Positions 36,027 to 64,000 of a DNA stretch of 64,000 nt are shown here, in pieces (position 1 is the first letter of the stretch; every line of letters starts with the position of its first letter). The DNA lies in assembly GCA_964415355.1 (NCBI GenBank), contig CAYPYS010000001.1, forward strand, positions 1,361 through 65,360. The letters run 5' to 3'. A program made the position numbers and the translations under genes. This DNA comes from an uncultured Planctomycetia bacterium. GTDB lineage: Bacteria > Omnitrophota > Gorgyraeia > Gorgyraeales > Gorgyraeaceae. Under the pieces are notes generated by a model. That model was given only the letters and a program-made list of their open reading frames with translations, made no database searches and had not been told where the DNA came from.

Positions 36027-36034
36027 ATCCCACC

Positions 36035-40084: not shown

Positions 40085-40086
40085 CC

Positions 40087-41951: not shown

Positions 41952-41961
41952 CGCGGGTGGG

Positions 41962-43785: not shown

Positions 43786-43802
43786 ACCCAGGAAATCAAG
43801 CG

Positions 43803-43841
43803 CTAACTTTACATTTTAACGTTGTTGAAATGTAAAGTTAG
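43803..43841. repeat. 39-bp repeat, copy 25 (B)
   Basis: It lies between the giant GspK-like gene and the 607-aa protein gene. Confidence 0.9.
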
Positions 43842-47023: not shown

Positions 47024-47053
47024 TTTACCCTAACTCGTCCAAACTGACAATCC

Positions 47054-47092
47054 CTAACTTTACATTTCAACAACGTTAAAGTGTAAAGTTAG
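47054..47092. repeat. 39-bp repeat, copy 26 (A)
   Basis: It lies upstream of the GspK-like gene, next to the terminator. Confidence 0.9.
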
Positions 47093-47093
47093 C

Positions 47094-47133
47094 GCAAAAA
47101 AATCCCTGCGCCTCCTAAAAGGAAGCGCAGGGT
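47094..47133 (-). terminator. rho-independent terminator after the MscS-like gene
   Basis: On the minus strand CCCTGCGC-N13-GCGCAGGG is followed by TTTTTTT. Confidence 0.6.
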
Positions 47134-47176
47134 CAAAACTTAAAACAAAATCACGTTGTAAAAATATCAATGCCCG

Positions 47177-47851: not shown

Positions 47852-47921
47852 ACGTCACCTCCCTTTCTCTAAAGAGTGAAGTATACCTTATCAACTCCCA
47901 ATCGTCAAGGGTAGCGAGCCT

Positions 47922-47945
47922 ATGTCATTCCCGCGAAAGCGGGAA
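47922..47945. repeat. GC-hairpin repeat ATGTCATTCCCGCGAAAGCGGGAATCCATAA (copy 4 of 4; 31 nt identical to the copy at 22961-22991)
   Basis: Read directly from the sequence. It lies between the MscS-like gene start and the GT9 gene end. Confidence 0.8.
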
Positions 47946-47948
47946 TCC

Positions 47949-47985
47949 ATAAAATGCCTAAGCTTACTTTCAACAATGTTAAATG
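47949..47985. repeat. 39-bp repeat, copy 27 (degenerate, A-like)
   Basis: CTAAGCTTACTTTCAACAATGTTAAATGTAAACTTAG lies next to GC hairpin copy 4. Confidence 0.75.
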
Positions 47986-47990
47986 TAAAC

Positions 47991-49196
47991 TTAGGTGGAG
48001 AGGAAGGATTTGACTTTTTTAAAGATGTCTTCGGGCTTGATATTTTTTAAGCAAATGCCTTCTTTGCACGGCGATTTTCTGTGATTATAGACATTCAGGC
48101 AGGGACTGCAGACCAAATCTGAATCTATAGATATTTTGTCGCTATCTCCTTCTCCGTATAAACGAGACGTCTCTGGTCCGAAAAGTATTATGACTTTTAT
48201 GGGAACCAGGGTCGAAAAATGAGCCGGTCCGCTGTCGCTCGTCACCAATAAATCTGCGACACAGTACAAAGTCAAAAGTTCTCTCAGCGAAGTCTCTCCG
48301 GCGAGAGAAATCGCGTCCCCCATCCTATATGCCAGCATCTTGCCCTTTTCTTTTTCTCCGGCAACGCCTGTAATGATAATGGTCGCGCGGGGAAATTCTT
48401 GCAAAATCATCCTCGCCAGTTTCACATAGTTTTCTTCAGGCCAACGCCTCACCTGCAACAGATCATCCATGTCAGGATTCAAAAGTACTATTGGGCTGGT
48501 CAGGTTTGACTTTTTCACGCCCTCGATTTTTTTTACCAGCGCACTTTTCTCGCTTTCACTGGGGGAAAAAACAGGAAGTCCTTCGGTCACATCCGGGGTC
48601 TTAAAGCACATGGGTTTATTATCAGGCGACGGGCAATGATTAAGGGCCTCTACCAATGTTGCGAACAAGACCCTTGTGTGCAGGTATGGATTATATACAA
48701 GCCTGTGAGTAAAAAGATCTCCTCTATAAGGGCCTTCGCAGGTGAACAAGTGAAACCCGACTCTCTTATCAGCCCCGGAAAGATACGAAAGGATAGCAGA
48801 GCCCCTGGAGAAAAATTCCATATCTATGGCAGCGTCTATTTTTTCTTTCCTGATTCTCGCAAGTGCCTTTATCAAGGACAAAATCATGCCGCCAGGAGAG
48901 CTCGGATCTATCTCTATTATATTTTGCGACGGCAGTATATCGAATATATCCAATATATGGCGGTTTTCTTTAAAGACTAAAAAATAAAGATTATCTTTCC
49001 CCACCATACCAGCTGCCTTTTTTAACGCCTGATAGGCGAGCATCGTGGAACCCTGCTCTATTAATTTTATGAAGAGGATTTTGGAGGGATGGCCTGTGTC
49101 TTCGTTATCTTTTTTAAGATTTCTACACACCGTGAGCAAAAAACAAAACACGCTGCCGACGTTCCTGTCTAACCACCGAATAACTCCCTGATTCAT
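47991..49196 (-). CDS. glycosyltransferase family 9 (heptosyltransferase-like)
   Basis: The GT9 fold is present (ILFIKLIEQGS...GPETSRLYGEGD). The start is moved to MNQGVIRW past the repeat artefact. Confidence 0.65.
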   Translation of the reverse strand: MNQGVIRWLDRNVGSVFCFLLTVCRNLKKDNEDTGHPSKILFIKLIEQGSTMLAYQALKKAAGMVGKDNLYFLVFKENRHILDIFDILPSQNIIEIDPSSPGGMILSLIKALARIRKEKIDAAIDMEFFSRGSAILSYLSGADKRVGFHLFTCEGPYRGDLFTHRLVYNPYLHTRVLFATLVEALNHCPSPDNKPMCFKTPDVTEGLPVFSPSESEKSALVKKIEGVKKSNLTSPIVLLNPDMDDLLQVRRWPEENYVKLARMILQEFPRATIIITGVAGEKEKGKMLAYRMGDAISLAGETSLRELLTLYCVADLLVTSDSGPAHFSTLVPIKVIILFGPETSRLYGEGDSDKISIDSDLVCSPCLNVYNHRKSPCKEGICLKNIKPEDIFKKVKSFLST

Positions 49197-49233
49197 GTCA
49201 CTATTGTAACCTGCGCTAATAGGGATTTCAACC

Positions 49234-49272
49234 TTAACTTTACACTTTAACATTGTTGAAGTGTATACTTAG
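49234..49272. repeat. 39-bp repeat, copy 28 (B variant), first of an inverted tandem pair
   Basis: TTAACTTTACACTTTAACATTGTTGAAGTGTATACTTAG. Confidence 0.85.
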
Positions 49273-49311
49273 GTAACTTTACATTTCAACAATGTTAAAG
49301 TGTAAAGTTAG
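49273..49311. repeat. 39-bp repeat, copy 29 (A), second of the inverted tandem pair
   Basis: GTAACTTTACATTTCAACAATGTTAAAGTGTAAAGTTAG. Confidence 0.9.
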
Positions 49312-49751
49312 TATTGGGGGAGGGTGAGGGTGTGGTTTTGTTCGCCGTCGGTGAGAACCACTTTGTCTTTTTTTATCTCCGCTACAGCATACCCGCCGAT
49401 CTTATCTCCTACCCCCACTAGATTATCGTTTATCATGGCAAGAGGCGCACTGTCATCCCAGAGTATGCCTGTCAAGACCATGTCAGAAAGAGTTGCCGGC
49501 TCAGAGGTCGATGGACCAGAGGAAAATGGGTCACGGCCCCAGTCAGAAAAATCAGTCCTTCTCGGCCGTTTTGTATTAGAGGTAATATTTATTTCTGCAG
49601 TAACTGCTCTTTGCTTTTTAATGTCCGCAGGCTTATTGGAAAGCTCACGTCTTACTTTTGAAGGAGTAAGTATGCCATAAATCAAACTGCAAACAGCTGC
49701 GATCCCTAAAACAATCAATAAGATCAATTTTTTATTCTGCATTTTAGTCAC
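49308..49751 (-). CDS. PilP-like protein (tentative)
   Basis: An N-terminal TM is followed by the C-domain LTGILWDDSAPLAMINDNLVGVGDKIGGYAVAEIKKDKVVL, which is PilP/GspC-like. Confidence 0.45.
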   Translation of the reverse strand: MTKMQNKKLILLIVLGIAAVCSLIYGILTPSKVRRELSNKPADIKKQRAVTAEINITSNTKRPRRTDFSDWGRDPFSSGPSTSEPATLSDMVLTGILWDDSAPLAMINDNLVGVGDKIGGYAVAEIKKDKVVLTDGEQNHTLTLPQY

Positions 49752-50265
49752 CCGAAAGGCACATATTTACCGTCAAGACAGCATTTATCCTTCCTGCCTT
49801 GTCTGTGTCAGAACTTAGATTAAGTTCTTTTACTGTAACCAGGCTTTTTTCCAGCTTTTCCAGTGAGCCTAAAAATATAAAAAATTCTTTATATGTCGAG
49901 TTTAGCTTTATATCTATAGGCAGGATCTTATACTTGGAATCCTTTGAGTCCTTTATTTTCCCAGGAGCAATAGAGATAAAATTAATACCCTTTGATCTGC
50001 CTTGTTTGGTAAATTCATCTATTGCTATAGATATATCTTTTTCGGATATCAGCACCCTCTTCGTTCCGGACTGCCTTAAAGCATCTATTGCCTCGCGCGC
50101 CCGCAATGCCTCTGCCTCGATATTTCTACATTCACCTCTTGCCAGGCTGCATTTATTGATAAGCGGCCTGTACAGAAAAAGGTATAACCCGAGAACAAAA
50201 ATCACCCCCGCGCTTACTATTATCATCGGCCTTTCTCGAATCTTAACCCATAAGACGTGACCCAT
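49744..50265 (-). CDS. PilO-like protein (tentative)
   Basis: An N-terminal TM is followed by a coiled coil. The gene lies downstream of the PilM-N fusion. Confidence 0.45.
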   Translation of the reverse strand: MGHVLWVKIRERPMIIVSAGVIFVLGLYLFLYRPLINKCSLARGECRNIEAEALRAREAIDALRQSGTKRVLISEKDISIAIDEFTKQGRSKGINFISIAPGKIKDSKDSKYKILPIDIKLNSTYKEFFIFLGSLEKLEKSLVTVKELNLSSDTDKAGRINAVLTVNMCLSGD

Positions 50266-50280
50266 AACTTATAATTCCTT

Positions 50281-51873
50281 CTAATCTACCCAACACTCCA
50301 GCTCAAACTCATTACCAACCTTACCCCTGATCTCTTTCGTGCTGATCAATCTTACATCTTTAAATATACCTTTTTCCAGGTCAAGTATAAAGCCTGATAG
50401 TAATCCTTCAGGCTCACTGGAAGCTACTACGCCTCGAATCCTAATGGCCTTATCTTTCACTATAACTCCCGTAAGGTAAATATTATCGGAAATTATGTTG
50501 CTTAATTCTTTAAATACATCTTCCCAGTATGGCTCATTCAGCAGGATCTCTTCCGCCAGATACTTGGCCTCCACTTCGGCCATCTGCGGCCCTAGGCTTA
50601 ACATCTCTGTTTTACTTGCAGCGATTCTTTTTTGAAAAACTGACAGCTGGATTCTCAGCCCTGTATAGACAAGGGCTAGCATAATGACAATGCCTGCGGC
50701 TATGCCCTGCACAGTAGCGCGCTTAAAAGTCCTCTTTGTCTTCTCTTTAATTTCCGGCGGGAGTAGATTTATGCCCTTTGCCTCGCTCAAGGCTGCTCCT
50801 ATAGCTATACCCAGGCGGTGCGTGTCAGCAGATAGCGACGCATCTATCGCACCTGACCTGACCTTGAGGCCCTTTAGGAAATTCTCGGCTTTTACCTCTA
50901 TCCCTAATTCGTCCGAAAGAAAATCCTTTAGGCCTTTAAGAGATGACCCGCCGCCCAGTAAAGCCAATGACTCGATCTTACCGCCATCTGTCTCCTCTCT
51001 GTAATAATCAAGGCACCTGTCTATCTCGCTTACCAGCTGCTCCAGTGGCGGCCTGATCATAGAAAGAATTTGAATAGTAGAGATCTTATCCTCTACCATT
51101 TCAGATTTTCCTTCACCAGGTATGCCGATCTCTCGTTTTATCCTCTCTGCATCCTCCAATGAAAGCTCTGTCTTGCCTCTATCAGAAACCAGGACCCCTG
51201 TCATCTCTTTAGTGATATTATCTCCTGCCACAGGTATCTTGCGGGAAAATATAAGATCCTTTCCTTTAAATATAACCAATTCTGTATGCCGCATTCCTAT
51301 GTCGAGAAAACACCTGGCTTCATTTTCATTAGAATGCAAGGCCTGGACAAATCTCTGCATTGCATACGGAATAGTGATAAACGAGTCTGGTTTTATACCA
51401 ACTCCTGCCAATAAAGATAAATATTTATCAATGGTCTTCTTAGGCGAAGCAGCTACCAGGATCTGATATTTCTTGATCCCTTTATCAACAACATCACCCA
51501 GGATCTGAAAATCTATTAACGAGTCATCCACTGGAAACGGAAAATAATTTTTTGCAGCCAGCCTTATGGCATCGCGAAGCTCTGATTTCGGCATATAAGG
51601 CGCTGTTACCTTTTTTATCGCGGTCCTGGGGCAATCGACAGTAACAATAAAGTGAGAATTTTTAATATCGATCTTTCTGATGATCTTCTTAAGAAGCTCT
51701 TTTATCTCTTTTTCGCGCCTTGCCTCATCATCCGTATAGTCGATCTCTTTCAAATCCGCCTTTACCAGTTTCAGTCCTTCTGGTGTTTTTAGAAACTGGG
51801 CAAATTTTATAGATGATGACCCGATGTCCAGACCCACTATGTAATCTTTTTTCAATATATTCATCATTTTCAT
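50281..51873 (-). CDS. PilM-PilN fusion protein (second copy)
   Basis: VGLDIGSSSIKFA is an actin-like fold. A C-terminal TM IAAGIVIMLALVYTG follows. Confidence 0.65.
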   Translation of the reverse strand: MKMMNILKKDYIVGLDIGSSSIKFAQFLKTPEGLKLVKADLKEIDYTDDEARREKEIKELLKKIIRKIDIKNSHFIVTVDCPRTAIKKVTAPYMPKSELRDAIRLAAKNYFPFPVDDSLIDFQILGDVVDKGIKKYQILVAASPKKTIDKYLSLLAGVGIKPDSFITIPYAMQRFVQALHSNENEARCFLDIGMRHTELVIFKGKDLIFSRKIPVAGDNITKEMTGVLVSDRGKTELSLEDAERIKREIGIPGEGKSEMVEDKISTIQILSMIRPPLEQLVSEIDRCLDYYREETDGGKIESLALLGGGSSLKGLKDFLSDELGIEVKAENFLKGLKVRSGAIDASLSADTHRLGIAIGAALSEAKGINLLPPEIKEKTKRTFKRATVQGIAAGIVIMLALVYTGLRIQLSVFQKRIAASKTEMLSLGPQMAEVEAKYLAEEILLNEPYWEDVFKELSNIISDNIYLTGVIVKDKAIRIRGVVASSEPEGLLSGFILDLEKGIFKDVRLISTKEIRGKVGNEFELECWVD

Positions 51874-51908
51874 ATATTATTCACGAGTCACGAACTATTA
51901 GGTAACTA

Positions 51909-53105
51909 TCAAACCACAGGAACGACTTCGTCCCAATCGCTCTGCGGCGTAACCGTAATAGCTCCTTCGGGTATCCCTTGAGGCAAGGAGCCGGGCAAAG
52001 ATGACTGATCATACGTTACGCTTACATCGTCTTTTATTTTATCTCCGTCATACTCATTAGCTACGACACTACCGCTGATAACCGCGTCACCTCGCAACTT
52101 CGCTGTGTCAGCATAGATGATCCCTGTGAAGGTCGTACTATCTTTCACTATCACGCTCTTGTTATTTTCAGGAGCAAGTACGCTACCTGTCACATTCGCG
52201 CTATCTCTAAGAGTAATGTCTTTTCTGGCATAGAGAACAGCGCCGCTTTGAATAACTGCATTATTTTTAATCTTCATGTTTTTTTTTGTGACAATTGTCA
52301 CGTTAGAAGAAATATTGGCACTGTCCTGTATCGTTACATCATTTTTAGCTACAATAATGCCAGATCCTGTAATTGTAGCATTATCCTTGATCTTTACTTT
52401 CTTATAGTACACGGTGCCGCCATTGAGATCGTAAGTATCGTTATTCTTTAATGTCCAATCACTGGACGCCTGACTTTCTGCGGTGGAGATTTGATTATCA
52501 TACCAGGTCGTGTCAAATGCCGGATAGGTCGGGACAGGATCCGGTGGTCCGGGCGCCTCGGTATACGTGCCGCTACCTGTCACGCTATCTGCATACACAA
52601 GCCCATTAGTAACGCTGGTGTTCTGTTCAACTTCGACATCTCCGTCATAATAGACGTCGCCCGAAATAGCGACATCGTCTTTGATCTTTAATTCGTCAGA
52701 GTTGATATTGCCGAATAATACATAATCAAAGGCAGCAGGAAAAGCTATTGAGACATCTGCGCTCTGCATGACTTTCCGGTTCAATACATCCACTGTCCCT
52801 GTTGAACTAAGATCATAAGTAGAGCCGTTCTTACTCACGCTCACAGAATAACTACCGTCTCCCAAATTCGCATTTATCGCTGTAGGGCTATTTCTATAAC
52901 CAGAGTCGTTTTTAAGCTGATAGATGGCCTGCTGGATCCCTGCCTCGGCTATCCATAATGCCTTTGAGCTGGCTACATCATTTCCCGAACCCTTGAGCTG
53001 AGCAGATGTCATAAATAAAAATCCTGCGGTAATGGCAGAGAGAGTCGCCATGATTATAAAGGTCATTATCAGCGCGGCGCCGCCTTTAGCTGATAAATCA
53101 ATCAT
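51909..53105 (-). CDS. PilX-like minor pseudopilin with C-terminal beta-helix-like repeat domain
   Basis: A TM N-terminus and ALWIAEAGIQQAIYQL match the PilX N-domain. Repeated V/I-x-x-x-x-x-I/V units follow (ITGSGIIVAKNDVTIQDSANISSNVTIV...). Confidence 0.45.
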   Translation of the reverse strand: MIDLSAKGGAALIMTFIIMATLSAITAGFLFMTSAQLKGSGNDVASSKALWIAEAGIQQAIYQLKNDSGYRNSPTAINANLGDGSYSVSVSKNGSTYDLSSTGTVDVLNRKVMQSADVSIAFPAAFDYVLFGNINSDELKIKDDVAISGDVYYDGDVEVEQNTSVTNGLVYADSVTGSGTYTEAPGPPDPVPTYPAFDTTWYDNQISTAESQASSDWTLKNNDTYDLNGGTVYYKKVKIKDNATITGSGIIVAKNDVTIQDSANISSNVTIVTKKNMKIKNNAVIQSGAVLYARKDITLRDSANVTGSVLAPENNKSVIVKDSTTFTGIIYADTAKLRGDAVISGSVVANEYDGDKIKDDVSVTYDQSSLPGSLPQGIPEGAITVTPQSDWDEVVPVV

Positions 53106-53620
53106 ATATTTCTCGGCCTCACTTCTGTCTTTGACCTTATTGTTTCATCGCCCCTTACAACACTTAAATCAATGGTAGCTATATTCCCGCTCAAAGACAA
53201 ATCAGATGTGGTCGGCGCAGCAACATCTGTCACAATAATCTGCCCTGAGCCATAGGTAAAGGTGCTATTGATGTCGCCTGTTAAAGCGGCCTTTCTAAGC
53301 TCATACTTAGTCTGCTCGAATGCCGGCGGAGGCACATAAGAGTCGCTCGCATTATAGAGATAATAGATATAATAATTGCTCCCGTCCTGTGAAAATCTTA
53401 TTTCGTCATAGCCGGCTGTGGACTGGATCTCTTTTGCCTCCCTTAAATCCCGCACCATTTCTTCTATACCTCTATCAAGGACGATATCAATGCCTGAACG
53501 CCCTTCTGTGCTTGACCAACTTAATAATACCGCGCGAAAAACAAAGACGCTCGTAACGGCCAGGACAGAAAACATTATAATGCTTATCAGGAGCTCTATG
53601 AGAGTCAGTCCTTTATGCAT
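53102..53620 (-). CDS. prepilin-type N-terminal cleavage/methylation domain protein (minor pilin)
   Basis: The N-terminus is MHKGLTLIELLISIIMFSVLA. Confidence 0.7.
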   Translation of the reverse strand: MHKGLTLIELLISIIMFSVLAVTSVFVFRAVLLSWSSTEGRSGIDIVLDRGIEEMVRDLREAKEIQSTAGYDEIRFSQDGSNYYIYYLYNASDSYVPPPAFEQTKYELRKAALTGDINSTFTYGSGQIIVTDVAAPTTSDLSLSGNIATIDLSVVRGDETIRSKTEVRPRNI

Positions 53621-53629
53621 ATCAGCTTA

Positions 53630-53977
53630 TCAATAATTCGCCACCAGCGTCGTCAAAGTAACGCTGGGCTGCCTGCCCTTGGCATTCCATGATACGGTCA
53701 CATCCACCTGCATAGGATTATCGCCTTCGGCAATATCTACAGTTGTGTTAAAATTTGAAAAATCTGCATCAGCAGCGGGTCCGCTGTCAGTCAGGCTGGC
53801 AAAATCTGTGTCTTTGATCTCTTCCATCTTTGCCTGGGCTATATTTAAAGCCAGGTCCACATTTTCGACATCAGTAAAGGCAAAAATCCCTGAGCTAAAA
53901 GCGCTGACCAGCGCGATCACGCCTACTGTGAGAATAATAATGGTAATAAGAATCTCGAGCAGGGTAAAGCCATTCAT
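53630..53977 (-). CDS. prepilin-type minor pilin
   Basis: The N-terminus is MNGFTLLEILITIIILTVGVIAL. Confidence 0.7.
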   Translation of the reverse strand: MNGFTLLEILITIIILTVGVIALVSAFSSGIFAFTDVENVDLALNIAQAKMEEIKDTDFASLTDSGPAADADFSNFNTTVDIAEGDNPMQVDVTVSWNAKGRQPSVTLTTLVANY

Positions 53978-54454: not shown

Positions 54455-55669
54455 CTAATGCCTTAGTATCTTTATCATGTCAAACATGGGCAAAAGCATT
54501 GATGCCATAATAAAGCCAACCATGCTCCCCATGATAACTAAGAATAATGGTTCTATTATAGTCGTCAATTTTTTTATTGTATAGCCTAAAGACATATTAT
54601 AAAAATCCGATATCTTATTCAGCATACCGTCTAAATTTCCTGTCTCCTCGCCTACAGAAATCATCTGCACTGTATCTGGAGGGAATTCCTCGCTTACCTT
54701 CAGGCTCTCGGCAATACCTTCTCCTTTTTCGACAGAGGTGCGCGCATTTCCGACAACACGAGCCAGAACTTCATTCCCCATAACCTCCCTTGTTATATCC
54801 AGTGATACGAGTATGGGGACACCGCTTGATACAAGCGTTGCCAGGGTCCTGGCAAATCTTGATACTGCCACTTTGCGAAATAATAAACCCAGCACAGGCA
54901 ACCTCAATCTAAACCTGTCAAAGTTAAACCTGCCGCTGGCTGTCCTTATATAATATCTTACGCCTGTTGCGCCTATTATAGTAAAAAGCGCGAACAAATA
55001 CCAGTATCTTTTTATGCCTGTCCCCACCCTGTAAAGGATAAGTGTAGGCGCTGGCAATGCTATGCCTACCTTCATAAAGATCTCTGCGAACTGCGGTATA
55101 ATAGTCGTAACTATAAAGAGCGTGACTGCTATGCCGGCAAGCAAAAGTATCATCGGATAAAAAAGCGCGCTCTTGATCTTCTGCCTCAGGTCTTCCTGCT
55201 TTTCAGTAAATTCAGCGAACCTGGTTAAAACAGTATCTAGCTTGCCGCTGGCCTCGCCGATTTTTACCATACTTATAAACAATTTGGGAAACACTCGCGG
55301 ATGCTTTGCGAGCGCCTGGGAAAAACTATCGCCTGCTTCGAGATTTCTTTTGACACTACCGACCGTATCTCTCAGATTCTTATTCTCGATCTGCTTGTCC
55401 AATGTGTCCAGACAGAGCAAAATGGGTATGCCGGAATTTATCATATTGGCCAGCTGCACATTGAACATGATCATATCCTCGGCACTTATCCTTTTAAGCT
55501 TTTCGAATGATGACTCCAGTCTGATCCCGGGCACTGCCTCTGTAAACCGGATCACCATATACCCCATTCTGTGGAGTTTTTCTGTTATCTCGTCCTTCGT
55601 GGCCGCATCCATAGTGCCCTTCACTAACTTACCTGCAGCATCCCGGGCCTTATAAATATAAGTAGGCAC
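54455..55669 (-). CDS. pilC: type IV pilus/T2SS platform protein (PilC/GspF)
   Basis: Two GspF domains and 3 TM segments. Position next to the PilB gene supports the call. Confidence 0.85.
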   Translation of the reverse strand: MPTYIYKARDAAGKLVKGTMDAATKDEITEKLHRMGYMVIRFTEAVPGIRLESSFEKLKRISAEDMIMFNVQLANMINSGIPILLCLDTLDKQIENKNLRDTVGSVKRNLEAGDSFSQALAKHPRVFPKLFISMVKIGEASGKLDTVLTRFAEFTEKQEDLRQKIKSALFYPMILLLAGIAVTLFIVTTIIPQFAEIFMKVGIALPAPTLILYRVGTGIKRYWYLFALFTIIGATGVRYYIRTASGRFNFDRFRLRLPVLGLLFRKVAVSRFARTLATLVSSGVPILVSLDITREVMGNEVLARVVGNARTSVEKGEGIAESLKVSEEFPPDTVQMISVGEETGNLDGMLNKISDFYNMSLGYTIKKLTTIIEPLFLVIMGSMVGFIMASMLLPMFDMIKILRH

Positions 55670-57372: not shown

Positions 57373-57411
57373 CTAACTTTACATTTCAACAACGTTAAAG
57401 TGTAAAGTTAG
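57373..57411. repeat. 39-bp repeat, copy 30 (A)
   Basis: It lies between the GAF histidine kinase gene and pilB. Confidence 0.9.
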
Positions 57412-58604
57412 AGCGCGCGTATGTCTTTTGGCAGGGTAAATAAAAACCGCGATCCCTTGCCTGTTTCGCTATCCACCCATATCCTTCCTCTATGCAACTC
57501 TATTATCTCTTTTGCAATAGGAAGGCCCAGGCCTGTACTTTTTACCCCATCCGATTTTTCTTTAGCCACTGTATAAAATTTATCGAAGATCTTGTCCTGA
57601 TCTTCGCTGGCAATCCCCGCTCCATTATCTATCACGCTCACCTGTATAAATTTTCCCAGATTTTCCAGCCTTACATCTACCTTGCCATTTTCCTGCGTGT
57701 AGTTAATGGCATTGCTGATAAGATTGACAAGCACCCGCGTAATCAAATCGTGGTCAAACCACATATTGATTTTCTTGCGCGGTGTTGCCAATTTAAACTT
57801 TATGTCTTTCTTATCAGCGCTGAACTTCAAAGTATCATAAGAGTCCTTTAAAACAGGGCATATGTCCTGGTAGTTTCTTTTCATACGAAGCTTGCCGGAT
57901 TCAAGCTTTGATACATCCAAAAGGTCATTTACAAGATCAAGCACTCTATTGACATTATTTCTGACAATGTTTAAAAATTCTTCTTGCCCTTTATTGACTT
58001 TGCCAGCTGTGCCATCGAGCATCAGATTTGTTGCCTCTTTTACAGCGGCGAGTGGTGAACGCAATTCATGTGAAATAGTCGATACGAAATCAAGCTTTAT
58101 CTGGCTCAACCTCTTGAACTCTTCATATTTTAAAGATCTATTTACGGAGCGGGAGATATGATCAGAAAGTTCCTTTAATTTATTAAGGTCCTCTTCATCA
58201 AAAGCCTCTTTTGTGGCCTTATTGTTTACATTGACAACTCCTAAAAGCTCGTCTCTCGCCATAAGTGGCACACTTAGAAGAGAATCATTGTGATATTCTC
58301 CGCCTCTCCTTCGAAATCTTCTATCCTTTCCGATATCCTTTATAAGAAGCGGTTCTTTATTTTTTGCAACCCACCCCGAAACGCCCTCTCCCACCTTTGT
58401 CTTTGTGCTCTTTGCTATATCCTCAGCAATACCCTTTGCCACCTTAATGGAAAGCTCCTGGTTCTCTTTATCCAGGAGCATTAAAGACCCTCTTTCTACA
58501 CCAAGCATCTCGGTAATGCTGTCCATAGAGATCTTAAGGCAATCCTCCAGCTCAGCCTGCTCATGTATATCCCTTACTATGTTGTCCCAAGTCCTCGTAT
58601 CCAT
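57408..58604 (-). CDS. GAF-domain sensor histidine kinase (cytoplasmic)
   Basis: GAF region, H-box ISHELRSPL and HATPase G-boxes. Confidence 0.8.
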   Translation of the reverse strand: MDTRTWDNIVRDIHEQAELEDCLKISMDSITEMLGVERGSLMLLDKENQELSIKVAKGIAEDIAKSTKTKVGEGVSGWVAKNKEPLLIKDIGKDRRFRRRGGEYHNDSLLSVPLMARDELLGVVNVNNKATKEAFDEEDLNKLKELSDHISRSVNRSLKYEEFKRLSQIKLDFVSTISHELRSPLAAVKEATNLMLDGTAGKVNKGQEEFLNIVRNNVNRVLDLVNDLLDVSKLESGKLRMKRNYQDICPVLKDSYDTLKFSADKKDIKFKLATPRKKINMWFDHDLITRVLVNLISNAINYTQENGKVDVRLENLGKFIQVSVIDNGAGIASEDQDKIFDKFYTVAKEKSDGVKSTGLGLPIAKEIIELHRGRIWVDSETGKGSRFLFTLPKDIRAL

Positions 58605-58616
58605 ATATTCGTCATC

Positions 58617-58655
58617 CCTAACTTTACACTTTAACGTTGTTGAAATGTAAAGTTA
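58617..58655. repeat. 39-bp repeat, copy 31 (B)
   Basis: It lies between the first RR gene and the GAF kinase gene. Confidence 0.9.
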
Positions 58656-59027
58656 GGTCTTCTTTGTGTAAAATTTTATCTTGTCTATCAGTTCTTCCGC
58701 GTCAAAGGGCTTAGCTATAAAATCTGATGCTCCAACGTCTTTAGCTTCTTTTGGACAAGAATCTTGGCAAAGTCCTGCAGAAAATAATATTATAGGTATA
58801 TCCTTTGTTTCAGGAGTTACTTTTAATTTCTTGCACACCTCATAGCCGTGCATAACTGGCATAAATAAATCCAAAAGTACAATATCGGGTTTTGTCTCTT
58901 TTGCCTTATAAAGTGCACTTAGACCATCATACGCACAAGTAACTTCAAAACCATTGGACTCGAGCCTTGCCTTTGTAACCTCTATTATGTCCTTCTCGTC
59001 ATCCACTAATAACACTTTTGTCTTCAT
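58653..59027 (-). CDS. single-domain response regulator (REC only)
   Basis: KVLLVDDE...LLDLFMPVMHGYEV is a CheY-like receiver. Confidence 0.85.
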   Translation of the reverse strand: MKTKVLLVDDEKDIIEVTKARLESNGFEVTCAYDGLSALYKAKETKPDIVLLDLFMPVMHGYEVCKKLKVTPETKDIPIILFSAGLCQDSCPKEAKDVGASDFIAKPFDAEELIDKIKFYTKKT

Positions 59028-59398
59028 ATCTTCAATATCTCTCTCACCTTTTTGACTACATCATCCATCTCAAAAGGTTTTTCCATATAGCCTGAAATTT
59101 TCTGGAATGCAAACAAGTCGCGCACCTTTTCTTCCTCCTTGCCGCTAAGCATCAAAACAGGGATATTTTTTGTCTTAGGGAGACTTCTTAATTCTTTCAG
59201 GCAGGAGTAGCCGTCCATCTTGGGCATCATAATATCCAGTAAAATCATATCTGGCATCTCTTGTTCTGCTATCTTGACGCCTGCTTCACCATCGCCAACA
59301 GTTATAACCTGTAGATTCTCCTGCTCCAACCTGATCTTCAAAAGCTTCTGCATATCAGGCTCATCGTCTATTACTAGAACCTTCTTTTGTCCATCCAT
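59024..59398 (-). CDS. single-domain response regulator (REC only)
   Basis: KVLVIDDE...LLDIMMPKMDGY. Paralog of the neighbouring receivers. Confidence 0.85.
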   Translation of the reverse strand: MDGQKKVLVIDDEPDMQKLLKIRLEQENLQVITVGDGEAGVKIAEQEMPDMILLDIMMPKMDGYSCLKELRSLPKTKNIPVLMLSGKEEEKVRDLFAFQKISGYMEKPFEMDDVVKKVREILKI

Positions 59399-59418
59399 AA
59401 CACCCTCTCTTTATGCCG

Positions 59419-59457
59419 CTAACTTTACATTTCAACAACGTTAAAATGTAAAGTTAG
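59419..59457. repeat. 39-bp repeat, copy 32 (A)
   Basis: It lies between the RR2 and RR3 genes. Confidence 0.9.
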
Positions 59458-59461
59458 GCTA

Positions 59462-59833
59462 TTATTTTAGTAGTTCTTTTATCTTTCCTACCAACGCCTC
59501 TGGCTCGAAGGGTTTTGTAATATATGCGTCTGCACCCATTTCTTTGCCAATCATCTTATCCTTCTCCTGTGCCCTGGCAGTAAACATGATAATCGGCTTA
59601 TGCTTATGTTTTTCGTCAAACTTTAGCATTCTGCAAACCTTATAGCCGTCGATTTTAGGAAGCATTAAATCTAATATTACCAAATCCGGCCACGTAGACC
59701 TAGCCTTATCCAACCCCTCCTGGCCATCAGCTGCCTCTTTCACATCATATCCTACTGCCTCGAGGCGAAACTTCAGCATCTTCCGCAAATCTTCTTCATC
59801 ATCAACCAAAAGAATCTTTTTTTTCTCATTCAT
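59462..59833 (-). CDS. single-domain response regulator (REC only)
   Basis: KILLVDDE...ILDLMLPKIDGY. Confidence 0.85.
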   Translation of the reverse strand: MNEKKKILLVDDEEDLRKMLKFRLEAVGYDVKEAADGQEGLDKARSTWPDLVILDLMLPKIDGYKVCRMLKFDEKHKHKPIIMFTARAQEKDKMIGKEMGADAYITKPFEPEALVGKIKELLK

Positions 59834-60195
59834 AATACGCTCCTTATTTTTTCTATTAAATCCTTGGGATCATACGGCTTTTCAACAAAATACTTTATGT
59901 CCTCAAGCGCAAAAAGATCGCCCACCTTCTTTTTCTCCTTCGCTGATAGTATTATAACAGGAATATCCTTAAATTCATCTTCTTTCCTCATCTCTCTTAG
60001 GGCACTATAACCATCCATCTTAGGGAGCATTATATCTAACAATATCGCATCCGGCTTTTTGATCTTTAATAAATTAAGCATCTCTTCTCCGTCTCCGGCA
60101 CCCATAAACTCAAAACCTTCTGCCTCAAGTCTTGTCTTCATCATCTTTAACATATCCTGATCGTCATCAACAACTAGTATCCTTTTCTTTGCCAT
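59830..60195 (-). CDS. single-domain response regulator (REC only)
   Basis: RILVVDDD...LLDIMLPKMDGY. Confidence 0.85.
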   Translation of the reverse strand: MAKKRILVVDDDQDMLKMMKTRLEAEGFEFMGAGDGEEMLNLLKIKKPDAILLDIMLPKMDGYSALREMRKEDEFKDIPVIILSAKEKKKVGDLFALEDIKYFVEKPYDPKDLIEKIRSVL

Positions 60196-61363
60196 CTTCC
60201 ACCTCCTGCCTAAATGTTATTTTTTTGCCTTTCAAATCTTTCTCACTCTGTTTTATTAAACTCTCCTTATTCTCTGCCTCTCCAGGATAAACTGCAATAC
60301 CATAATTTAAAGGAACGTTAATTCTTTTCTTTAATCTTTCCAAAATGCTCTTTACGCCACATCTATTAGTACCTACCATCATAGCTAATAGCTTTCCGTC
60401 CTTGAATCTCGCGACCTTATCCTCAGGACCTCTGACCGTAGTCTTCATTGCCTCTTCTAAACTGGCTAGGTTTTCTTCGCTGTTATCCTTTTTCTTATTG
60501 ATACTAAAAACAATCAATGCTAATTCCAGCTCAGCATACCTCGCCCTCTCTATAGCTCCATCAAGCAAAAAATTAAACTCATTATCTCTCTTGTAAATAG
60601 GCAATGTAAAGATAAACTTACTCCCTTTACCCTCTTCAGACTCGACCCATATATCACCCGCGTGATAATCTACAATTCTCTTGCAAATAGAAAGTCCAAG
60701 GCCAAGGCCTGTATGTTTACGCGTCATACTGGTATCCAATGGATTATATTCTTTAAAAAGCTCTGGTATAAGTTCTCTTGAAATCCCAATGCCTGTATCT
60801 TCTACGCTGACTCTTATGACTTCTTTCCCGTCGATATTTCCATTGGAACTAACTATTGTTATCTTGCCTTTTTCTCTATTAAACTTTATTGCATTCGATA
60901 TAAGATGCTTTAATGCCTGGGCTATTCTCTTAGGGTCAAACCATGCCTGCTCAATGCCGTCGGAGAGTTCAATATTAAAATCTATTTTTTTCTTTTCTAT
61001 ATCCTCTTTAATCTCGACATACACATCATTTATGACTTTATTTATATCTGCCTTTTTTTTGTGCATTGTAATGCGTCCAGAATCCAGCTTGGAAAAATCC
61101 AGAACATCTACTACGAGTTTCGCCAGTCTATCTATATTTTTCTTTGCCATGCTTAAAAATTTCTTCTGATCATCGCCTATGGGCCCGGCAACTCCTTCCA
61201 GCACCAAAGAAATACTTTCTTTAATAGAAGTCAAAGGCGTACGCAATTCATGCGAGATTATTGAGACAAAATCCGACCTTATCTTTGAAAGCTTCTCAAT
61301 GTCCTCATTCGCCCTCAAAAGCGCCTGTTTTAATTCCATAATCTGAACTTCTTGCTTCTTCAT
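60167..61363 (-). CDS. cytoplasmic histidine kinase with ~140-aa uncharacterised C-terminal extension
   Basis: HisKA (ISHELRTPL) and HATPase motifs. No TM. A C-terminal extra domain is present. The gene overlaps the upstream RR gene by 29 nt. Confidence 0.8.
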   Translation of the reverse strand: MKKQEVQIMELKQALLRANEDIEKLSKIRSDFVSIISHELRTPLTSIKESISLVLEGVAGPIGDDQKKFLSMAKKNIDRLAKLVVDVLDFSKLDSGRITMHKKKADINKVINDVYVEIKEDIEKKKIDFNIELSDGIEQAWFDPKRIAQALKHLISNAIKFNREKGKITIVSSNGNIDGKEVIRVSVEDTGIGISRELIPELFKEYNPLDTSMTRKHTGLGLGLSICKRIVDYHAGDIWVESEEGKGSKFIFTLPIYKRDNEFNFLLDGAIERARYAELELALIVFSINKKKDNSEENLASLEEAMKTTVRGPEDKVARFKDGKLLAMMVGTNRCGVKSILERLKKRINVPLNYGIAVYPGEAENKESLIKQSEKDLKGKKITFRQEVEDGKEKDTSC

Positions 61364-61378
61364 GACTATCCCATCTAC

Positions 61379-61417
61379 CTAAGTTTACACTTTAACATTG
61401 TTGAAGTGTAAACTTAG
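61379..61417. repeat. 39-bp repeat, copy 33 (B variant)
   Basis: CTAAGTTTACACTTTAACATTGTTGAAGTGTAAACTTAG lies between the RR remnant and the histidine kinase gene. Confidence 0.85.
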
Positions 61418-61649
61418 GGATTATTTCAAGAGTCTCCTCTATCTTCCCCAAAAGCGCCTTTGGATCAAACGGTTTTGTAACATATGCGTCTGCGCCGACT
61501 TCTTCGCTTACCTTATGATCTTCGCCTATAGAATCTCGCAGCATAGTATATACAAACCAATACATCAGGATAATGACTATAAAGATAGTGGTAAAAATTG
61601 GCAAAAAAATAGAACGAAAAATCTTGCGTTTAATGCTGCTCTTGCCCAC
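61392..61649 (-). pseudogene. remnant of a response-regulator gene (C-terminal piece fused to an unrelated hydrophobic N-terminus)
   Basis: ...GADAYVTKPFDPKALLGKIEETLEI matches the C-terminus of the RR at 59462..59833 (GADAYITKPFEPEALVGKIKELLK). The end of the ORF runs into a repeat copy. Confidence 0.4.
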
Positions 61650-61698
61650 GATCCCCTCCAGCCTCGATACAATAAGCTATTTAGTGAGCTATATAACT

Positions 61699-61726
61699 AC
61701 TAGTATATATATAAATACATACTAGT
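61699..61726. promoter_or_regulatory. 28-bp palindrome ACTAGTAT-N12-ATACTAGT in an AT-rich untranslated region
   Basis: Read directly from the sequence. It lies between the double-REC regulator gene and the RR remnant. Confidence 0.35.
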
Positions 61727-61782
61727 CAAATTTAAATTTACATAGTGTTAATCCATGCAGTGAAACGTAATCAGGAAGGGAC

Positions 61783-61821
61783 TTAACTTTACATTTCAAC
61801 AACGTTAAAGTGTAAAGTTAA
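61783..61821. repeat. 39-bp repeat, copy 34 (A)
   Basis: It lies downstream of the double-REC regulator gene. Confidence 0.9.
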
Positions 61822-61835
61822 GCAGAGGTGGATTT

Positions 61836-62576
61836 TTATATATTGTCTTTTGTGATCTTTATTATTTCTTCTCTCGATATCGGTTTCATGCAGAACATGG
61901 TATTGCCGCCAATGCCATGCTCGCCCCGCTCCAGTAAATTACCCAGCTTGGAGAGGAACCCGGATATGACGCAGATCTTCGCATCTTTATCAAGCTCTCT
62001 TAACTCCGCCAACAATTCCTTTCCGTCCTTATCGGGTAATGCCAGGTCTAAGAAAGTCAGATGAAATTTTCTTGATTTGAATAATTCCATCCCTTCCTTT
62101 GCATTTTTTGCAAAGTCAAGCTCATAGTCAAGATTGCCTAAAACAGCCTTAAAAGCCTCTCTGATTAATTTGTCGTCATCTATTATCAAAATTCTCTTTC
62201 TGCCACCCTCGCCGCCCAGAAGTTCTTCTGTCATCTTTAAAAGCGAGTCTTTGAATATAGGCTTGTGGACGATCTTGCTCACCGCCCCTTCTTTTATAAG
62301 CAGCATATACTCTGCCATCTTATCCTCTGTCATTGCAGTAACAATACAGACCTTTGCGTTTCTCTTTGCCTTCTTTATCGCCCTGAAGGTATCGAGTCCG
62401 CTCATGCCAGGCATGTGTATACCAAGATAAATCAGGTCATAATTAGCGCTTTTAATTTTTTCCAGACCACTCTCCCCGCTCAAGGACGTATCCACCTCAT
62501 AACCTTCTTTTTCAAGGATACTTTTTACGCCGTTACATACTGTTTTGTCATCATCGATTATTAATATACGAGCCAT
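61836..62576 (-). CDS. tandem double-receiver response regulator (REC-REC, no output domain)
   Basis: Two receiver signatures are present (RILIIDDD at residues ~3 and ~128). Confidence 0.8.
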   Translation of the reverse strand: MARILIIDDDKTVCNGVKSILEKEGYEVDTSLSGESGLEKIKSANYDLIYLGIHMPGMSGLDTFRAIKKAKRNAKVCIVTAMTEDKMAEYMLLIKEGAVSKIVHKPIFKDSLLKMTEELLGGEGGRKRILIIDDDKLIREAFKAVLGNLDYELDFAKNAKEGMELFKSRKFHLTFLDLALPDKDGKELLAELRELDKDAKICVISGFLSKLGNLLERGEHGIGGNTMFCMKPISREEIIKITKDNI

Positions 62577-62586: not shown

Positions 62587-64000
62587 TTATTTTGCGACAG
62601 GCAACGATATTATCACCTCTGTACCCTTATTCTCCTCTGAAACAATATCTATCTTTCCATTGTGCTGTTCTATGATATTTCTAACTATAGACATACCCAT
62701 ACCAAGGCCTTTACCAGCTGGTTTTGTTGTAAAGAATGGATCAAAGACTCTTTTCAGATTTTCCCTTTTAATGCCACAGCCTTCATCCTTTACCCTTATG
62801 TTTACCATGTCATTTTCTAGACAAGTAGAAATCTTAATTTTTTTTAATTTTGTTTTTAAAACTGCATCTTTTGCGTTCAATAAGATATTTACCAATACCT
62901 GCTGGATAGAATTTTTCGCAACCTCGACACACGGTAAATTTTCTCCAAGTTCTTTTACAAGCTCCACTTTTTTTAATTTATATTCATGCATGATTAGAGG
63001 GATAGTCGCATTTACTATCGGATTTATATTCTCTATTTTTAAAACAATCTTTTCTTTGCGCGAAAATACCAACAGCTTTGATATTACATTGGAAATCCTT
63101 TTGAGTCCGTCCACTATTTGCAATAAGGTTTTATACTCTTTTGTGCTTTTCTTTTTTTCCGAAAGAATTGTTTCTGTAAGTAGCATTGTACCCATTAGAG
63201 GATTATTCATCTCATGCGCCATACCTGCAGAAAGCGTGCCTAATGCTGCCATTTTTTCAGCCTGAATGAGTTGCTCCTCTGTCCTCTTTCGCTCTACGAT
63301 TTCTTTATTAAGTCTCTCTATAGAGGTCGTTGTGTTTTTCAGGTCTTCTGTCATCTTGTTAAAAGACGACGCTAAAGCGCCTATTTCATCTCTTGATTTG
63401 ATATCAACTTTTGTATCGATGTTACCCTTTCCTATCTTTACTGTTGCCTGTATCAATTTTCTTATTGGCTTTGAGATCGAATGCGAAATAAGAATGCCAA
63501 CTAAAATAGCGAACAGGGTAACGGCAAACGAAATAACCTTCAGGATATTCTTGAGCCTTTCGACAGGCGCGAATATCTCTTTTATCTCGTGCTCAACGAT
63601 CAAAATCCAGCCAAGCCCTTTAAAATCCTTAAAGCCCCCTGAACGAGCAAATGCAAATAATTCTTCTTCTTCGCCAGATTCAATATTAATAAAATAGCCT
63701 TCATCCTCTTTGATCTTCTCAGCATAGTCTTCATTAGAGACATCTCGCAAGAATTCGAAATCCCTCTTTTCTTTTGTAACATGGATCAACTTGCCGTCTT
63801 TATTTAGTAATTTAAAATACCTACTGTGATATTTTTCTGTTAACGCAACTGATGTTAATATATTGATAACTTCTTCTATATTTAAAACGATCTTCATGGC
63901 TCCGATAAAATTTCCATCCTTATCATCAATTCTAATCCCTATATCAGTCGAATAAACACCGGCGCTTTTGTCGTATTGAACATCACTAACATGCAAACCC
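62587..64000 (-). CDS. sensor histidine kinase with periplasmic sensor and HAMP; probably extends beyond the right window edge
   Basis: A TM segment and HAMP region (KPIRKLIQATVKIGKGN), the H-box HEMNNPL and the HATPase domain are present. Confidence 0.8.
   Translation of the reverse strand, partial: GLHVSDVQYDKSAGVYSTDIGIRIDDKDGNFIGAMKIVLNIEEVINILTSVALTEKYHSRYFKLLNKDGKLIHVTKEKRDFEFLRDVSNEDYAEKIKEDEGYFINIESGEEEELFAFARSGGFKDFKGLGWILIVEHEIKEIFAPVERLKNILKVISFAVTLFAILVGILISHSISKPIRKLIQATVKIGKGNIDTKVDIKSRDEIGALASSFNKMTEDLKNTTTSIERLNKEIVERKRTEEQLIQAEKMAALGTLSAGMAHEMNNPLMGTMLLTETILSEKKKSTKEYKTLLQIVDGLKRISNVISKLLVFSRKEKIVLKIENINPIVNATIPLIMHEYKLKKVELVKELGENLPCVEVAKNSIQQVLVNILLNAKDAVLKTKLKKIKISTCLENDMVNIRVKDEGCGIKRENLKRVFDPFFTTKPAGKGLGMGMSIVRNIIEQHNGKIDIVSEENKGTEVIISLPVAK

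Follow-up and report, generated by a model that had tools for sequence, protein, structure and literature searches.

A histidine kinase and stand-alone receiver block conserved next to PilB-type filament genes in Omnitrophota

Gene content of the block and its place beside pilB

A 64,000-nucleotide (nt) window of contig CAYPYS010000001.1 (assembly GCA_964415355.1), from an uncultured member of the Omnitrophota, carries a block of two-component signalling genes that runs into genes for a type IV filament machine. The block genes occupy 54.4-64 kb of the window and every one lies on the minus strand, so that they are transcribed from high to low coordinates (Table 1). In this direction the block begins with a membrane sensor kinase of the dCache/HAMP type and a protein made of two receiver (REC) domains, followed by an 85-amino-acid (aa) open reading frame (ORF), the soluble histidine kinase HK2, the stand-alone receivers RRa, RRb, RRc and RRd, a second soluble kinase with a GAF domain, pilB and pilC. 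An earlier, sequence-only reading of this DNA had described four receiver genes between two soluble kinases, and all of these ORFs were found where it had placed them, together with the two 4-nt overlaps that it had reported (RRa/RRb, 59830-59833; RRc/RRd, 59024-59027). It had, however, put the block downstream of pilB, and the 85-aa fragment, the REC-REC gene and the HAMP kinase downstream of the receivers. By direction of transcription the block lies upstream of pilB and these three genes all lie upstream of the array. The start of pilC is the last base of the pilB ORF, and the short gaps and overlapping genes across the block make co-transcription of its genes plausible.

To place the block among its relatives, 46 loci carrying an HK2 homologue or a PilB of the window type were gathered, with the help of a scan of metagenome contigs by an alignment of the HK2 C-terminal domain. 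The patterns drawn from the full HK2 alignment were generic kinase motifs; a scan of genome contigs with them returned 80 loci of unrelated kinases from many phyla and was not used. Three of the 46 loci (L001-L003) are copies of the window's own locus, recovered identical at the protein level from three separate metagenomes, and the details of the locus are therefore not the error of a single assembly. Leaving these out gives a set of 43 related loci. The named homologues of HK2, RRc and PilB all belong to Candidatus Omnitrophota/Omnitrophica.

The core order across the loci is HK2, RRa, RRb, RRc, a PilB-type ATPase and PilC. PilB and PilC follow the array in 23 of the 24 loci whose sequence extends beyond the last receiver, some of these 24 being near-identical pairs from the same population, and the tie between block and pilB proposed from the single sequence is thus borne out. 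In 20 of the 23, PilB comes directly after the array, and in the other three (L001, L004 and L005) it comes after RRd and the GAF kinase. The distance from array to pilB is 0-107 nt, or a small overlap, on the same strand. L112, L114 and L117 have no RRa. In L116 a single 261-aa protein joins RRa and RRb (L116:8743-9528), and in about 20 loci HK2 is fused to a receiver to give a protein of ~510 aa (e.g. L006:8001-9533). Such natural fusions link the parts and are evidence that they work together. On the upstream side, kds genes, for synthesis of 3-deoxy-D-manno-octulosonic acid (KDO), flank the block in L001, L005, L006 and L123. RRd was found only in L001, L004, L005 and L090; the GAF kinase is the next gene in the first three of these, L090 ending inside RRd, and is thus present in just 3 of the 24 readable loci. 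Judged by their distribution, the pair RRd and GAF kinase and the pair HAMP kinase and REC-REC protein are lineage-specific additions to the core.

Two classes of PilB stand behind the array. Sixteen other loci have PilBs that are 68-100% identical among themselves and share 54-56% identity with the window PilB, and PilC is 34-36% identical between the classes as against 54-94% within the other class. The window signalling genes are 81-94% identical to those of L004 (GCA_964445715.1), the closest relative, yet L004 has the other PilB class, which indicates a rearrangement at the junction. The idea that pilB and pilC had been swapped in uniquely in this genome was partly rejected. PilB of the window type is widespread in the database, all named homologues being from Omnitrophota, and it also stands behind the array of L123, where HK2, RRa (70% identity), RRb (82%) and RRc (80%) are followed by a window-type PilB (84%). 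That the array remains beside PilB even though the class of PilB differs is the strongest available evidence of a functional link.

The Pfam search (cut-offs in bits: Response_reg 30.2, HisKA 26.9, HATPase_c 26.4, GGDEF 23.8) found no DNA-binding or enzymatic output domain in the block proteins, in agreement with the sequence-only reading. The intergenic gaps in the array are at most 63 nt and the orthologues have the same lengths as the window receivers, so that no output domain is concealed by a frameshift. No histidine phosphotransfer (Hpt) domain was found by Pfam in the 10 block proteins or in 30 further proteins at 18.6-51.9 kb, and neither an Hpt nor a Spo0B-like domain appears in the Pfam tables of L001, L004-L006 and L123-L125. 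Likewise CheA, CheW, methyl-accepting chemotaxis proteins (MCPs) and DNA-binding regulators were absent from the block, the scanned genes at 18.6-51.9 kb and the annotated related loci. The suggestion of a chemotaxis-like module therefore finds no support in the scanned regions of the window, which lack the CheA, CheW and MCP that define a chemosensory system. As far as sequence comparison can tell, the block is a multi-receiver module built on HisKA kinases, lacking an output domain, that relatives within the Omnitrophota keep next to their PilB-type genes, and we lean slightly towards regarding it as the local form of an old signalling module, shared across the Omnitrophota and joined to a type IV filament machine. 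No published description of the block was found in the literature on Omnitrophota type IV pili and PilB, on degenerate-GGDEF kinases with pili, or on 6KHU.

Table 1. Features of the block and its surroundings, in order of transcription for the genes (window coordinates).
Feature	Coordinates	Strand	Basis or remark
dCache/HAMP/HisKA/HATPase sensor histidine kinase	62587..64000	-	Pfam, dCache weak; cut by window end
REC-REC protein, 246 aa	61836..62576	-	two Response_reg domains, 143 bits
85-aa ORF, leader and receiver-gene remnant	61392..61649	-	GTG start
HK2, soluble HisKA + HATPase histidine kinase	60167..61363	-	Pfam
Degenerate GGDEF domain of HK2, residues 256-384	60212..60598	-	profile, AlphaFold2 (AF2) model, Foldseek
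RRa, stand-alone receiver, 121 aa	59830..60195	-	Pfam Response_reg, 92.8 bits
RRb, stand-alone receiver, 123 aa (RR3 of the sequence-only reading)	59462..59833	-	Pfam, 102.7 bits
RRc, stand-alone receiver, 124 aa	59024..59398	-	Pfam, 90.5 bits
RRd, stand-alone receiver, 124 aa	58653..59027	-	Pfam, 94.3 bits
GAF kinase, soluble GAF + HisKA + HATPase, 398 aa	57408..58604	-	Pfam
PilB/GspE-class assembly ATPase, 564 aa	55669..57363	-	T2SSE 470.8 bits, MshEN 79.1 bits
PilC/GspF platform protein	54455..55669	-	T2SSF domains recorded for the identical gene in L001
Sigma-70-like promoter match, TTGACT-16 nt-TATACT	61702..61729	-	10/12, consensus match only
Palindromic repeat	61788..61816	.	folding free energy (dG) -18.4 kcal/mol, z -6.3
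Palindromic repeat at remnant end	61384..61412	.	dG -21.3 kcal/mol
Palindromic repeat, RRb-RRc gap	59424..59452	.	dG -19.9 kcal/mol
Palindromic repeat, RRd-GAF kinase gap	58623..58651	.	repeat scan, hairpin fold
Palindromic repeat, GAF kinase-pilB gap	57378..57406	.	repeat scan, hairpin fold

The receivers and the kinase HK2

Each of RRa to RRd contains the Response_reg domain only, scoring 90-103 bits over residues ~5-119 of the 121-124 aa. The acidic pair DD, the phospho-accepting Asp, the S/T and the K are intact in all four receivers and in the group consensus sequences, and on these residues the four proteins can be classed as stand-alone CheY-like receivers. NCBIfam gave no usable names, all matches for receivers and kinases falling far under the curated cut-offs; for the DivK-like family NF045717 the receivers scored 74.3-83.1 bits where the cut-off is 160. 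Within the window, RRa and RRc are 48% identical, RRb and RRd 46%, and the remaining pairs 34-40%. RRa, RRb and RRc each have orthologues with 63-94% identity across the loci of relatives. Measured against the window copies, these three receivers keep 65-94% identity and the less conserved HK2 core 54-88%, and the receivers are about as conserved as the PilB ATPase across the relatives compared. For RRc the database search returned 391 relatives at E <= 1e-10; among the best 120 of them identity is 71-99%, almost all are 124 aa long, and every named one is from Omnitrophota.

When 118 receiver domains from the first 41 loci were placed in a neighbour-joining tree, they fell into clean groups: RRa (31 sequences, mean identity 73%), RRb (31 sequences, 77%), RRc (24 sequences, 79%), RRd (4 sequences, 77%) and the receiver fused to HK2 (22 sequences, 68%). 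Identity between groups is 34-44%. RRa is sister to RRc, and RRb is sister to the kinase-fused receiver. This pattern indicates that RRa, RRb and RRc are ancient paralogues whose duplication predates the divergence of the lineages, and the existence of orthologue groups argues against simple redundancy of the receivers. Each group also has its own signature at alpha4-beta5, namely AKEKKKvGDLFaLE in RRa, EMGADAYi.KPFEP in RRb and SGKEEEKVRDLFAFQKISGY in RRc. Given that alpha4-beta5 is the usual output face of a receiver, a distinct and conserved face in each group suggests a distinct partner for each receiver.

HK2 has neither a membrane segment nor an N-terminal sensor domain. Its HisKA and HATPase_c domains score 61.8 and 100 bits in Pfam, and those of the GAF kinase 62.8 and 103.7 bits. 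The H-boxes read from the translations are SHELRTPL in HK2 and SHELRSPL in the GAF kinase, and the ATP-binding boxes of the two proteins are, respectively, NAIKFN and NAINYT, EDTGIGI and IDNGAGI, and GLGLGL and GLGLPI. With these motifs both proteins have what defines a HisKA-type histidine kinase. More than 80 full-length homologues of HK2 were found at over 90% coverage and 49-84% identity, the named ones all from Omnitrophota, and they are either ~384 aa long or ~510 aa long with a receiver fused at the C-terminus. In the window the stop codon has been lost by comparison with L004 (L004:6285-6295), relatives being 383-384 aa long, and 15 extra codons at 60167-60211 (ITFRQEVEDGKEKDTSC) produce a 29-nt overlap with the start of RRa. 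The loss of the stop codon is present in all three independent metagenome assemblies.

The sequence-only reading had remarked on an unusual C-terminal domain of ~140 aa in HK2. The domain is indeed there, ~130 aa in size, and what appeared unusual is a degenerate GGDEF fold. Pfam GGDEF matches it with only 19.8 bits, under the cut-off. A profile of 25 orthologous HK2 C-terminal domains found 6khu_A, a 131-aa Thermotoga 'DGC protein', with E = 6e-10 among the sequences in the PDB, followed by GGDEF domains. An AF2 model of the domain has a pLDDT of 89.9, and the top 50 PDB matches of this model in Foldseek are all GGDEF domains with probability 1.0, the best query TM-scores being 0.76-0.81 (0.80 to 4urg and 6khu). 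On the strength of profile and model the domain is a shortened, degenerate GGDEF fold of ~125 aa as against ~160 aa for a full GGDEF domain. The position of the GGDEF hairpin is occupied by KDGKL in HK2, the hairpin is variable among relatives, and the first half of the domain is without the residues for metal and GTP binding. By these residues the domain lacks what is needed for an active diguanylate cyclase and is predicted to be catalytically dead.

A further motif, VRGPEDK, is nearly invariant. In the model it lies in the loop that joins the helix of residues 41-54 to the strand of residues 61-65, which is the location of the I-site in canonical GGDEF domains. In an alignment with GcbC bound to cyclic di-GMP (VRRPADLVARYGGEEF), the HK2 family reads VRGPEDKVvRFkxG, with GPED at the RxxD position. 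A Gly takes the place of the canonical I-site Arg and the Arg of the HK2 family is one residue upstream, and the canonical RxxD I-site, five residues before the hairpin, is thus absent from the HK2 domain in this alignment. To judge from its conservation, the VRGPEDK motif is clearly under selection and would be functional though non-canonical. A comparison of the domain with 1.84 billion representative proteins gave 4 clusters at E <= 1e-30 and 35 at E <= 1e-10, and the weaker matches shade into ordinary GGDEF domains. The C-terminal domains of HK2 appear on this evidence as a narrow GGDEF subfamily.

The surfaces by which kinases and receivers might recognise each other were compared. The HK2 helix after the phospho-accepting His (SHELRTPLTSIKES) is almost invariant across the loci, and the GAF kinase differs from it at +4, +7, +8, +9, +12, +13, +14 and +16. 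RRa, RRb and RRc have a common alpha1 pattern, D[ML]xK[ML][ML]KxRLE, and RRd has DIIEVTKARLE instead. Together with the co-occurrence of RRd and the GAF kinase and with the HK2 fusions, these patterns point to HK2 as the kinase of RRa, RRb and RRc and to the GAF kinase as that of RRd, with which it probably forms a cognate pair.

Filament genes, accessory genes and the repeat

The window ATPase scores 655.8 bits against the GspE model TIGR02533 (cut-off 630.25) and 658.3 bits against the PilB model TIGR02538 (cut-off 675.65), and on these scores 'pilus' is best read here as a type IV filament machine of either the type IV pilus or the type II secretion system (T2SS) class. The ATPase also contains the MshE-type cyclic di-GMP motif NF053729 (52.9 bits, cut-off 38, residues 10-59). 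PilB is thus probably a direct target of this second messenger, as predicted from the motif.

The filament gene cluster at 34527-53977 is unusually large. It contains four pilin-like genes, PilM-PilN fusions of 530 and 507 aa, PilO, a T2SSM-like protein, a 1061-aa lamin-tail (LTD)/HHH/T2SSK-like protein, secretins of 908 aa (with TPR repeats) and 499 aa, a family-9 glycosyltransferase and an MscS-like channel. The cluster genes scanned included no retraction ATPase of the PilT type. The window class of PilB is accompanied by a pilM-N/pilO/secretin cluster, and the other class (L004-L006, L096-L119) by pilC, pilin and YfhO genes. In L125 a 674-aa kinase with PAS, kinase and terminal PilZ domains (L125:7805-9829) is encoded directly upstream of a window-type PilB. 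A PilZ protein (L123:18946-19701) and a PAS-GGDEF-HD-GYP protein (L125:19084-20682) each close a pilus cluster. Parts associated with cyclic di-GMP thus recur around the filament machine in these sequences, and a connection of the machine with this messenger is plausible but unproven.

The dCache/HAMP kinase, cut by the end of the window, has a full length of 646 aa in the identical locus L001, and its stop codon is 10 nt before the REC-REC gene. The pair is missing from most loci. L091 carries the same REC-REC gene as a 75% identical orthologue, and in L124 an analogous dCache-HAMP kinase is followed by two single receivers. The kinase and the REC-REC protein are best regarded, from their domains and distribution, as a third, accessory input. 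In the N-terminal receiver of the REC-REC protein the phospho-Asp site is occupied by Gly52 (GGT, 62421-62423), the alignment showing LGIHMP against LDIMLP at the site. The L091 orthologue has GAC (Asp) there. The C-terminal receiver is canonical. By these comparisons the N-terminal domain is a lineage-specific pseudo-receiver created by a single-base change. The other accessory kinase, the GAF kinase, is paralogous to the HK2 core (41-42% identical) and its H-box HELRS is kept in three orthologues.

The 85-aa ORF between REC-REC and HK2 had been described as a receiver-gene fragment fused to a hydrophobic leader and truncated by a 39-bp element. Remnant and leader were both confirmed, and the role of the element was not. 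The remnant, ~61425..61523, consists of the final 33 codons of an RRb-like receiver gene. It matches an intact gene of the closest relative (L004:4694-5059) with 89.5% nt identity over 86 nt (61507..61422) and 75% aa identity over 32 aa. In L004 this intact gene is the immediate upstream neighbour of HK2, and L097 has a similar gene in the same place. Disruption of the remnant gene by the 39-bp repeat was rejected: homology reaches the last codons, the element lies after the former stop and the missing part is the 5' end, the first ~88 codons surviving in no frame. A GGAGG is found 5 nt before the GTG start of the ORF, which reads into the repeat at 61384..61412, and the repeat supplies the last codons and the stop. 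The leader (61524-61649) has a single predicted transmembrane stretch, and no homologue of it was found in the window or in any collected locus. With the GGAGG and a promoter-like site ahead of it, the 85-aa ORF may be expressed, and its product would then be a small, chimeric membrane protein with the alpha5 helix of a receiver at its end. The lost phospho-Asp of the REC-REC protein and the RRb-like gene cut to a 33-codon stump indicate decay in the accessory part of the block. The promoter-like match of Table 1 lies upstream of the 85-aa ORF and HK2 and is tied for best with four others.

In L004, positions 1-5059 upstream of HK2 encode two receivers and a 683-aa REC-GAF kinase, and the upstream set of this locus also has two RRb-like receivers and a CheR methyltransferase. 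CheR was seen upstream of HK2 in L004 only. The region upstream of HK2 seems to be a hotspot of gain and loss of two-component genes.

The palindromic repeat occurs in 29 copies in the window where none is expected. Its core is 29 nt, ~39 nt with flanks, and the consensus is CTAACTTTACAyTTyAACrwyGTTrAArTGTAAAGTTAG. Copies lie outside the block as well (e.g. 1602-1630, 5015-5043, 8694-8722, and a tandem pair at 49239-49267 and 49278-49306). Each of the five block copies folds as a hairpin at -16 to -21 kcal/mol (z -4.8 to -7.8). That they might act as intrinsic terminators within the operon was rejected, no T-tract following the hairpins on the coding strand. The repeat was found in no related locus, the closest relative L004 included, and is present only on the genome's own contigs L001-L003. 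Its absence from all relatives indicates a recent spread in this genome, and it does not belong to the signalling system. It seems to be a REP-like element of recent expansion.

Elsewhere in the window, and unrelated to the block, the region 18633-28140 carries genes for hydrogenase maturation (the C-terminal part of a HypF-like protein, HypD, an AIR-synthase-type HypE-like gene and HypA), ferredoxin-like proteins and subunits of a complex-I-like membrane hydrogenase (NADHdh, 20-kDa and 30-kDa).

Proposed mechanism, alternatives and related systems

The explanation towards which the evidence tips, if not by much, is that HK2 and its receivers control a type IV pilus or T2SS-like motor independently of transcription. 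HK2 would autophosphorylate and pass the phosphate to RRa, RRb and RRc. The phosphorylated receivers would bind different parts of the filament machine, such as PilB, PilC or PilM, or the kinases themselves, and would set the extension activity without any change in transcription. Since HK2 has neither a membrane segment nor an N-terminal sensor, input could only come through the degenerate GGDEF domain or through a protein partner. The GGDEF domain would be the likely input or scaffolding site of HK2, with cyclic di-GMP or another guanine nucleotide as its possible ligand. Extra signals would reach the same node by way of two accessory pairs, GAF kinase with RRd and HAMP kinase with REC-REC.

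Several points weigh against this explanation. In L114 the order is HK2, RRb, RRc and then lptB-, trigger-factor- and ClpP-like genes in the place of pilB. The ATPase scores as GspE too, and what it drives may be a secretion-like machine instead of a motility pilus. Lacking the RxxD motif and the active-site residues, HK2 would not be predicted by the usual rule to bind cyclic di-GMP. The ~510-aa relatives of HK2 are hybrid kinases, which normally hand the phosphate on via an Hpt protein, and such an Hpt could be encoded elsewhere in the genome. Finally, the phosphotransfer partners and the targets of the receivers are deduced here from gene order, fusions and motif patterns, and the ligand too is deduced.

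Some of the same observations could be explained in other ways. One, unlikely but still to be taken seriously, is a branched pathway with phosphate sinks, in which one receiver signals while the others compete for the phosphate of HK2 or the GAF kinase and so shape the speed and amplitude of the response. CheY1/CheY2 in Sinorhizobium and PilH versus PilG are precedents. Several receivers without output domains do lie beside two or three kinases, an E-x-x-T/S beside the phospho-accepting His of both HisKA kinases makes a balance of kinase and phosphatase activity plausible, and RRa is dispensed with in three loci. However, conservation across loci is higher for each of RRa, RRb and RRc than for the HK2 core, and each receiver group keeps its own output-face signature, which a pure sink would not be expected to do. 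The phosphate sink that had been proposed from the sequence is thus weakened by the group-specific conservation at alpha4-beta5 and stays among the rivals, being in any case compatible with control of the motor by HK2 and its receivers. Rather less likely again is a His-Asp-His-Asp phosphorelay to an Hpt protein and a DNA-binding regulator elsewhere, or a reverse relay of the RedCDEF type. The number of parts would suit a relay, the block having two to three kinases and five proteins built of receivers, none with an output domain. The hybrid HK2-REC proteins of relatives would suit one too, and the order membrane kinase, REC-REC, soluble kinase, single receiver mirrors RedCDEF. Against the classical multi-step relay, which had also been put forward, stands the absence of any Hpt or Spo0B-like domain from the block, the Pfam-scanned neighbours at 18.6-51.9 kb and the Pfam tables of related loci. 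The ATP-binding boxes of both soluble kinases are moreover complete, in which they differ from RedE, and the HAMP kinase and REC-REC protein, missing from most loci, cannot be part of a core mechanism.

It is also conceivable, though improbable, that the adjacency of pilB is historical and that the array controls envelope or lipopolysaccharide synthesis, cell polarity or, in the manner of DivJ/PleC-DivK, the cell cycle. The kds flank is as conserved as the pilB flank, the array of L114 has no pilB after it, and the receivers do have DivK-like scores (74-83 bits against a threshold of 160), albeit sub-threshold. These observations must be set against an array that stays next to PilB even when the class of PilB differs, with same-strand gaps of at most 107 nt or small overlaps, and against the recurrence of cyclic di-GMP modules in the same clusters. 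Least of all can we credit a recent tandem duplication of one CheY-like gene leaving redundant copies, although four similar-sized genes lie in a row and the closest pairs, RRa/RRc and RRb/RRd, suggest that a two-gene unit was once duplicated. The alignment and phylogeny that had been proposed as a check on recent duplication refute it: the window receivers are just 34-48% identical to each other, whereas their orthologues are 63-94% identical across loci and fall into separate groups.

Control of the motor by HK2 and its receivers can be compared with several known systems. By analogy the block is closest in function to pilus motor control of the PilG/PilH type. The stand-alone receivers PilG and PilH of Pil-Chp (Pseudomonas, Xanthomonas, Acinetobacter), and those of the cyanobacterial PixG/PixH type, act post-translationally on type IV pili. 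As in Pil-Chp, there would be more than one receiver per kinase, a feature that in Pil-Chp goes with antagonistic or sink roles; the antagonism between PilG and PilH is treated in PMC7029496. Pil-Chp, however, has the CheA-type kinase ChpA with Hpt, CheW and MCP, whereas the block has HisKA kinases, and there are three or four receivers in the block compared with two in Pil-Chp. The control of MshE and PilB through the MshEN domain is similar in that the window PilB passes the cyclic di-GMP motif model. It differs in needing no two-component proteins, where the block adds a kinase and receivers on top.

In architecture the block resembles, by analogy, DivJ/PleC-DivK and RedCDEF. In Caulobacter the two HisKA kinases DivJ and PleC share a stand-alone receiver, DivK, which acts by protein contact, and the circuit (with PleD) includes a GGDEF protein. 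The block receivers fall under the DivK cut-off in NCBIfam, and their genomic link is to pilB and not to cell-cycle genes. In the RedCDEF system of Myxococcus xanthus a dual-receiver protein passes phosphate to the kinase-like RedE, which dephosphorylates a single-domain receiver (PMC2755868). Phosphate flow in this system is non-linear (PMC2755868). The likeness, which is one of architecture only, lies in the use of two-component parts alone, encoded side by side and lacking an output domain: a membrane kinase, a dual receiver, a soluble kinase or kinase-like protein and a single receiver. RedE cannot autophosphorylate, while the catalytic boxes of HK2 and the GAF kinase are complete, and Red governs developmental timing while the block adjoins a pilus locus. 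The dual receiver and membrane kinase are, moreover, accessory here and absent from most loci. SgmT/DigR, also of M. xanthus, combines GAF, kinase, receiver and a GGDEF domain that serves as a receiver of cyclic di-GMP and not as a cyclase, and it is linked to type IV pilus-dependent behaviour; SgmT binds cyclic di-GMP via an intact I-site and signals to the DNA-binding DigR (PMC3509222). The ~510-aa HK2 relatives and the GAF kinase jointly hold the same set of domains. HK2 differs in having GPED at the RxxD position, another domain order and no DNA-binding partner nearby.

The components of the block are ordinary; its interest lies in the conserved three-receiver design, the invariant motif of the GGDEF domain and a phylum that is possibly host-dependent. 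Omnitrophota are widespread, uncultured and very small bacteria with a lifestyle thought to depend on cell contact, for which type IV pili are prime candidates. The block is a concrete and testable candidate for pilus switching in this phylum, and the HK2 domain defines a narrow degenerate-GGDEF subfamily with an invariant non-canonical motif. If the receivers act elsewhere, the finding would be a well-conserved but ordinary two-component cluster. A bolder version, possible but doubtful, would make the block a phylum-specific hub free of transcription, with HK2 gated by a new kind of non-canonical, nucleotide-binding GGDEF remnant through VRGPEDK and three dedicated receivers docking on separate motor parts such as PilB, PilC and PilM, as a phosphorylation code for extension, pausing and perhaps retraction that decides attachment to prey or host. 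To our knowledge, the known ways of controlling the pilus motor are so far the CheA-based Pil-Chp system, direct binding of cyclic di-GMP and transcriptional control by PilS/PilR. If motor control by HK2 and its receivers is correct, a HisKA-based multi-receiver design would be added to these.

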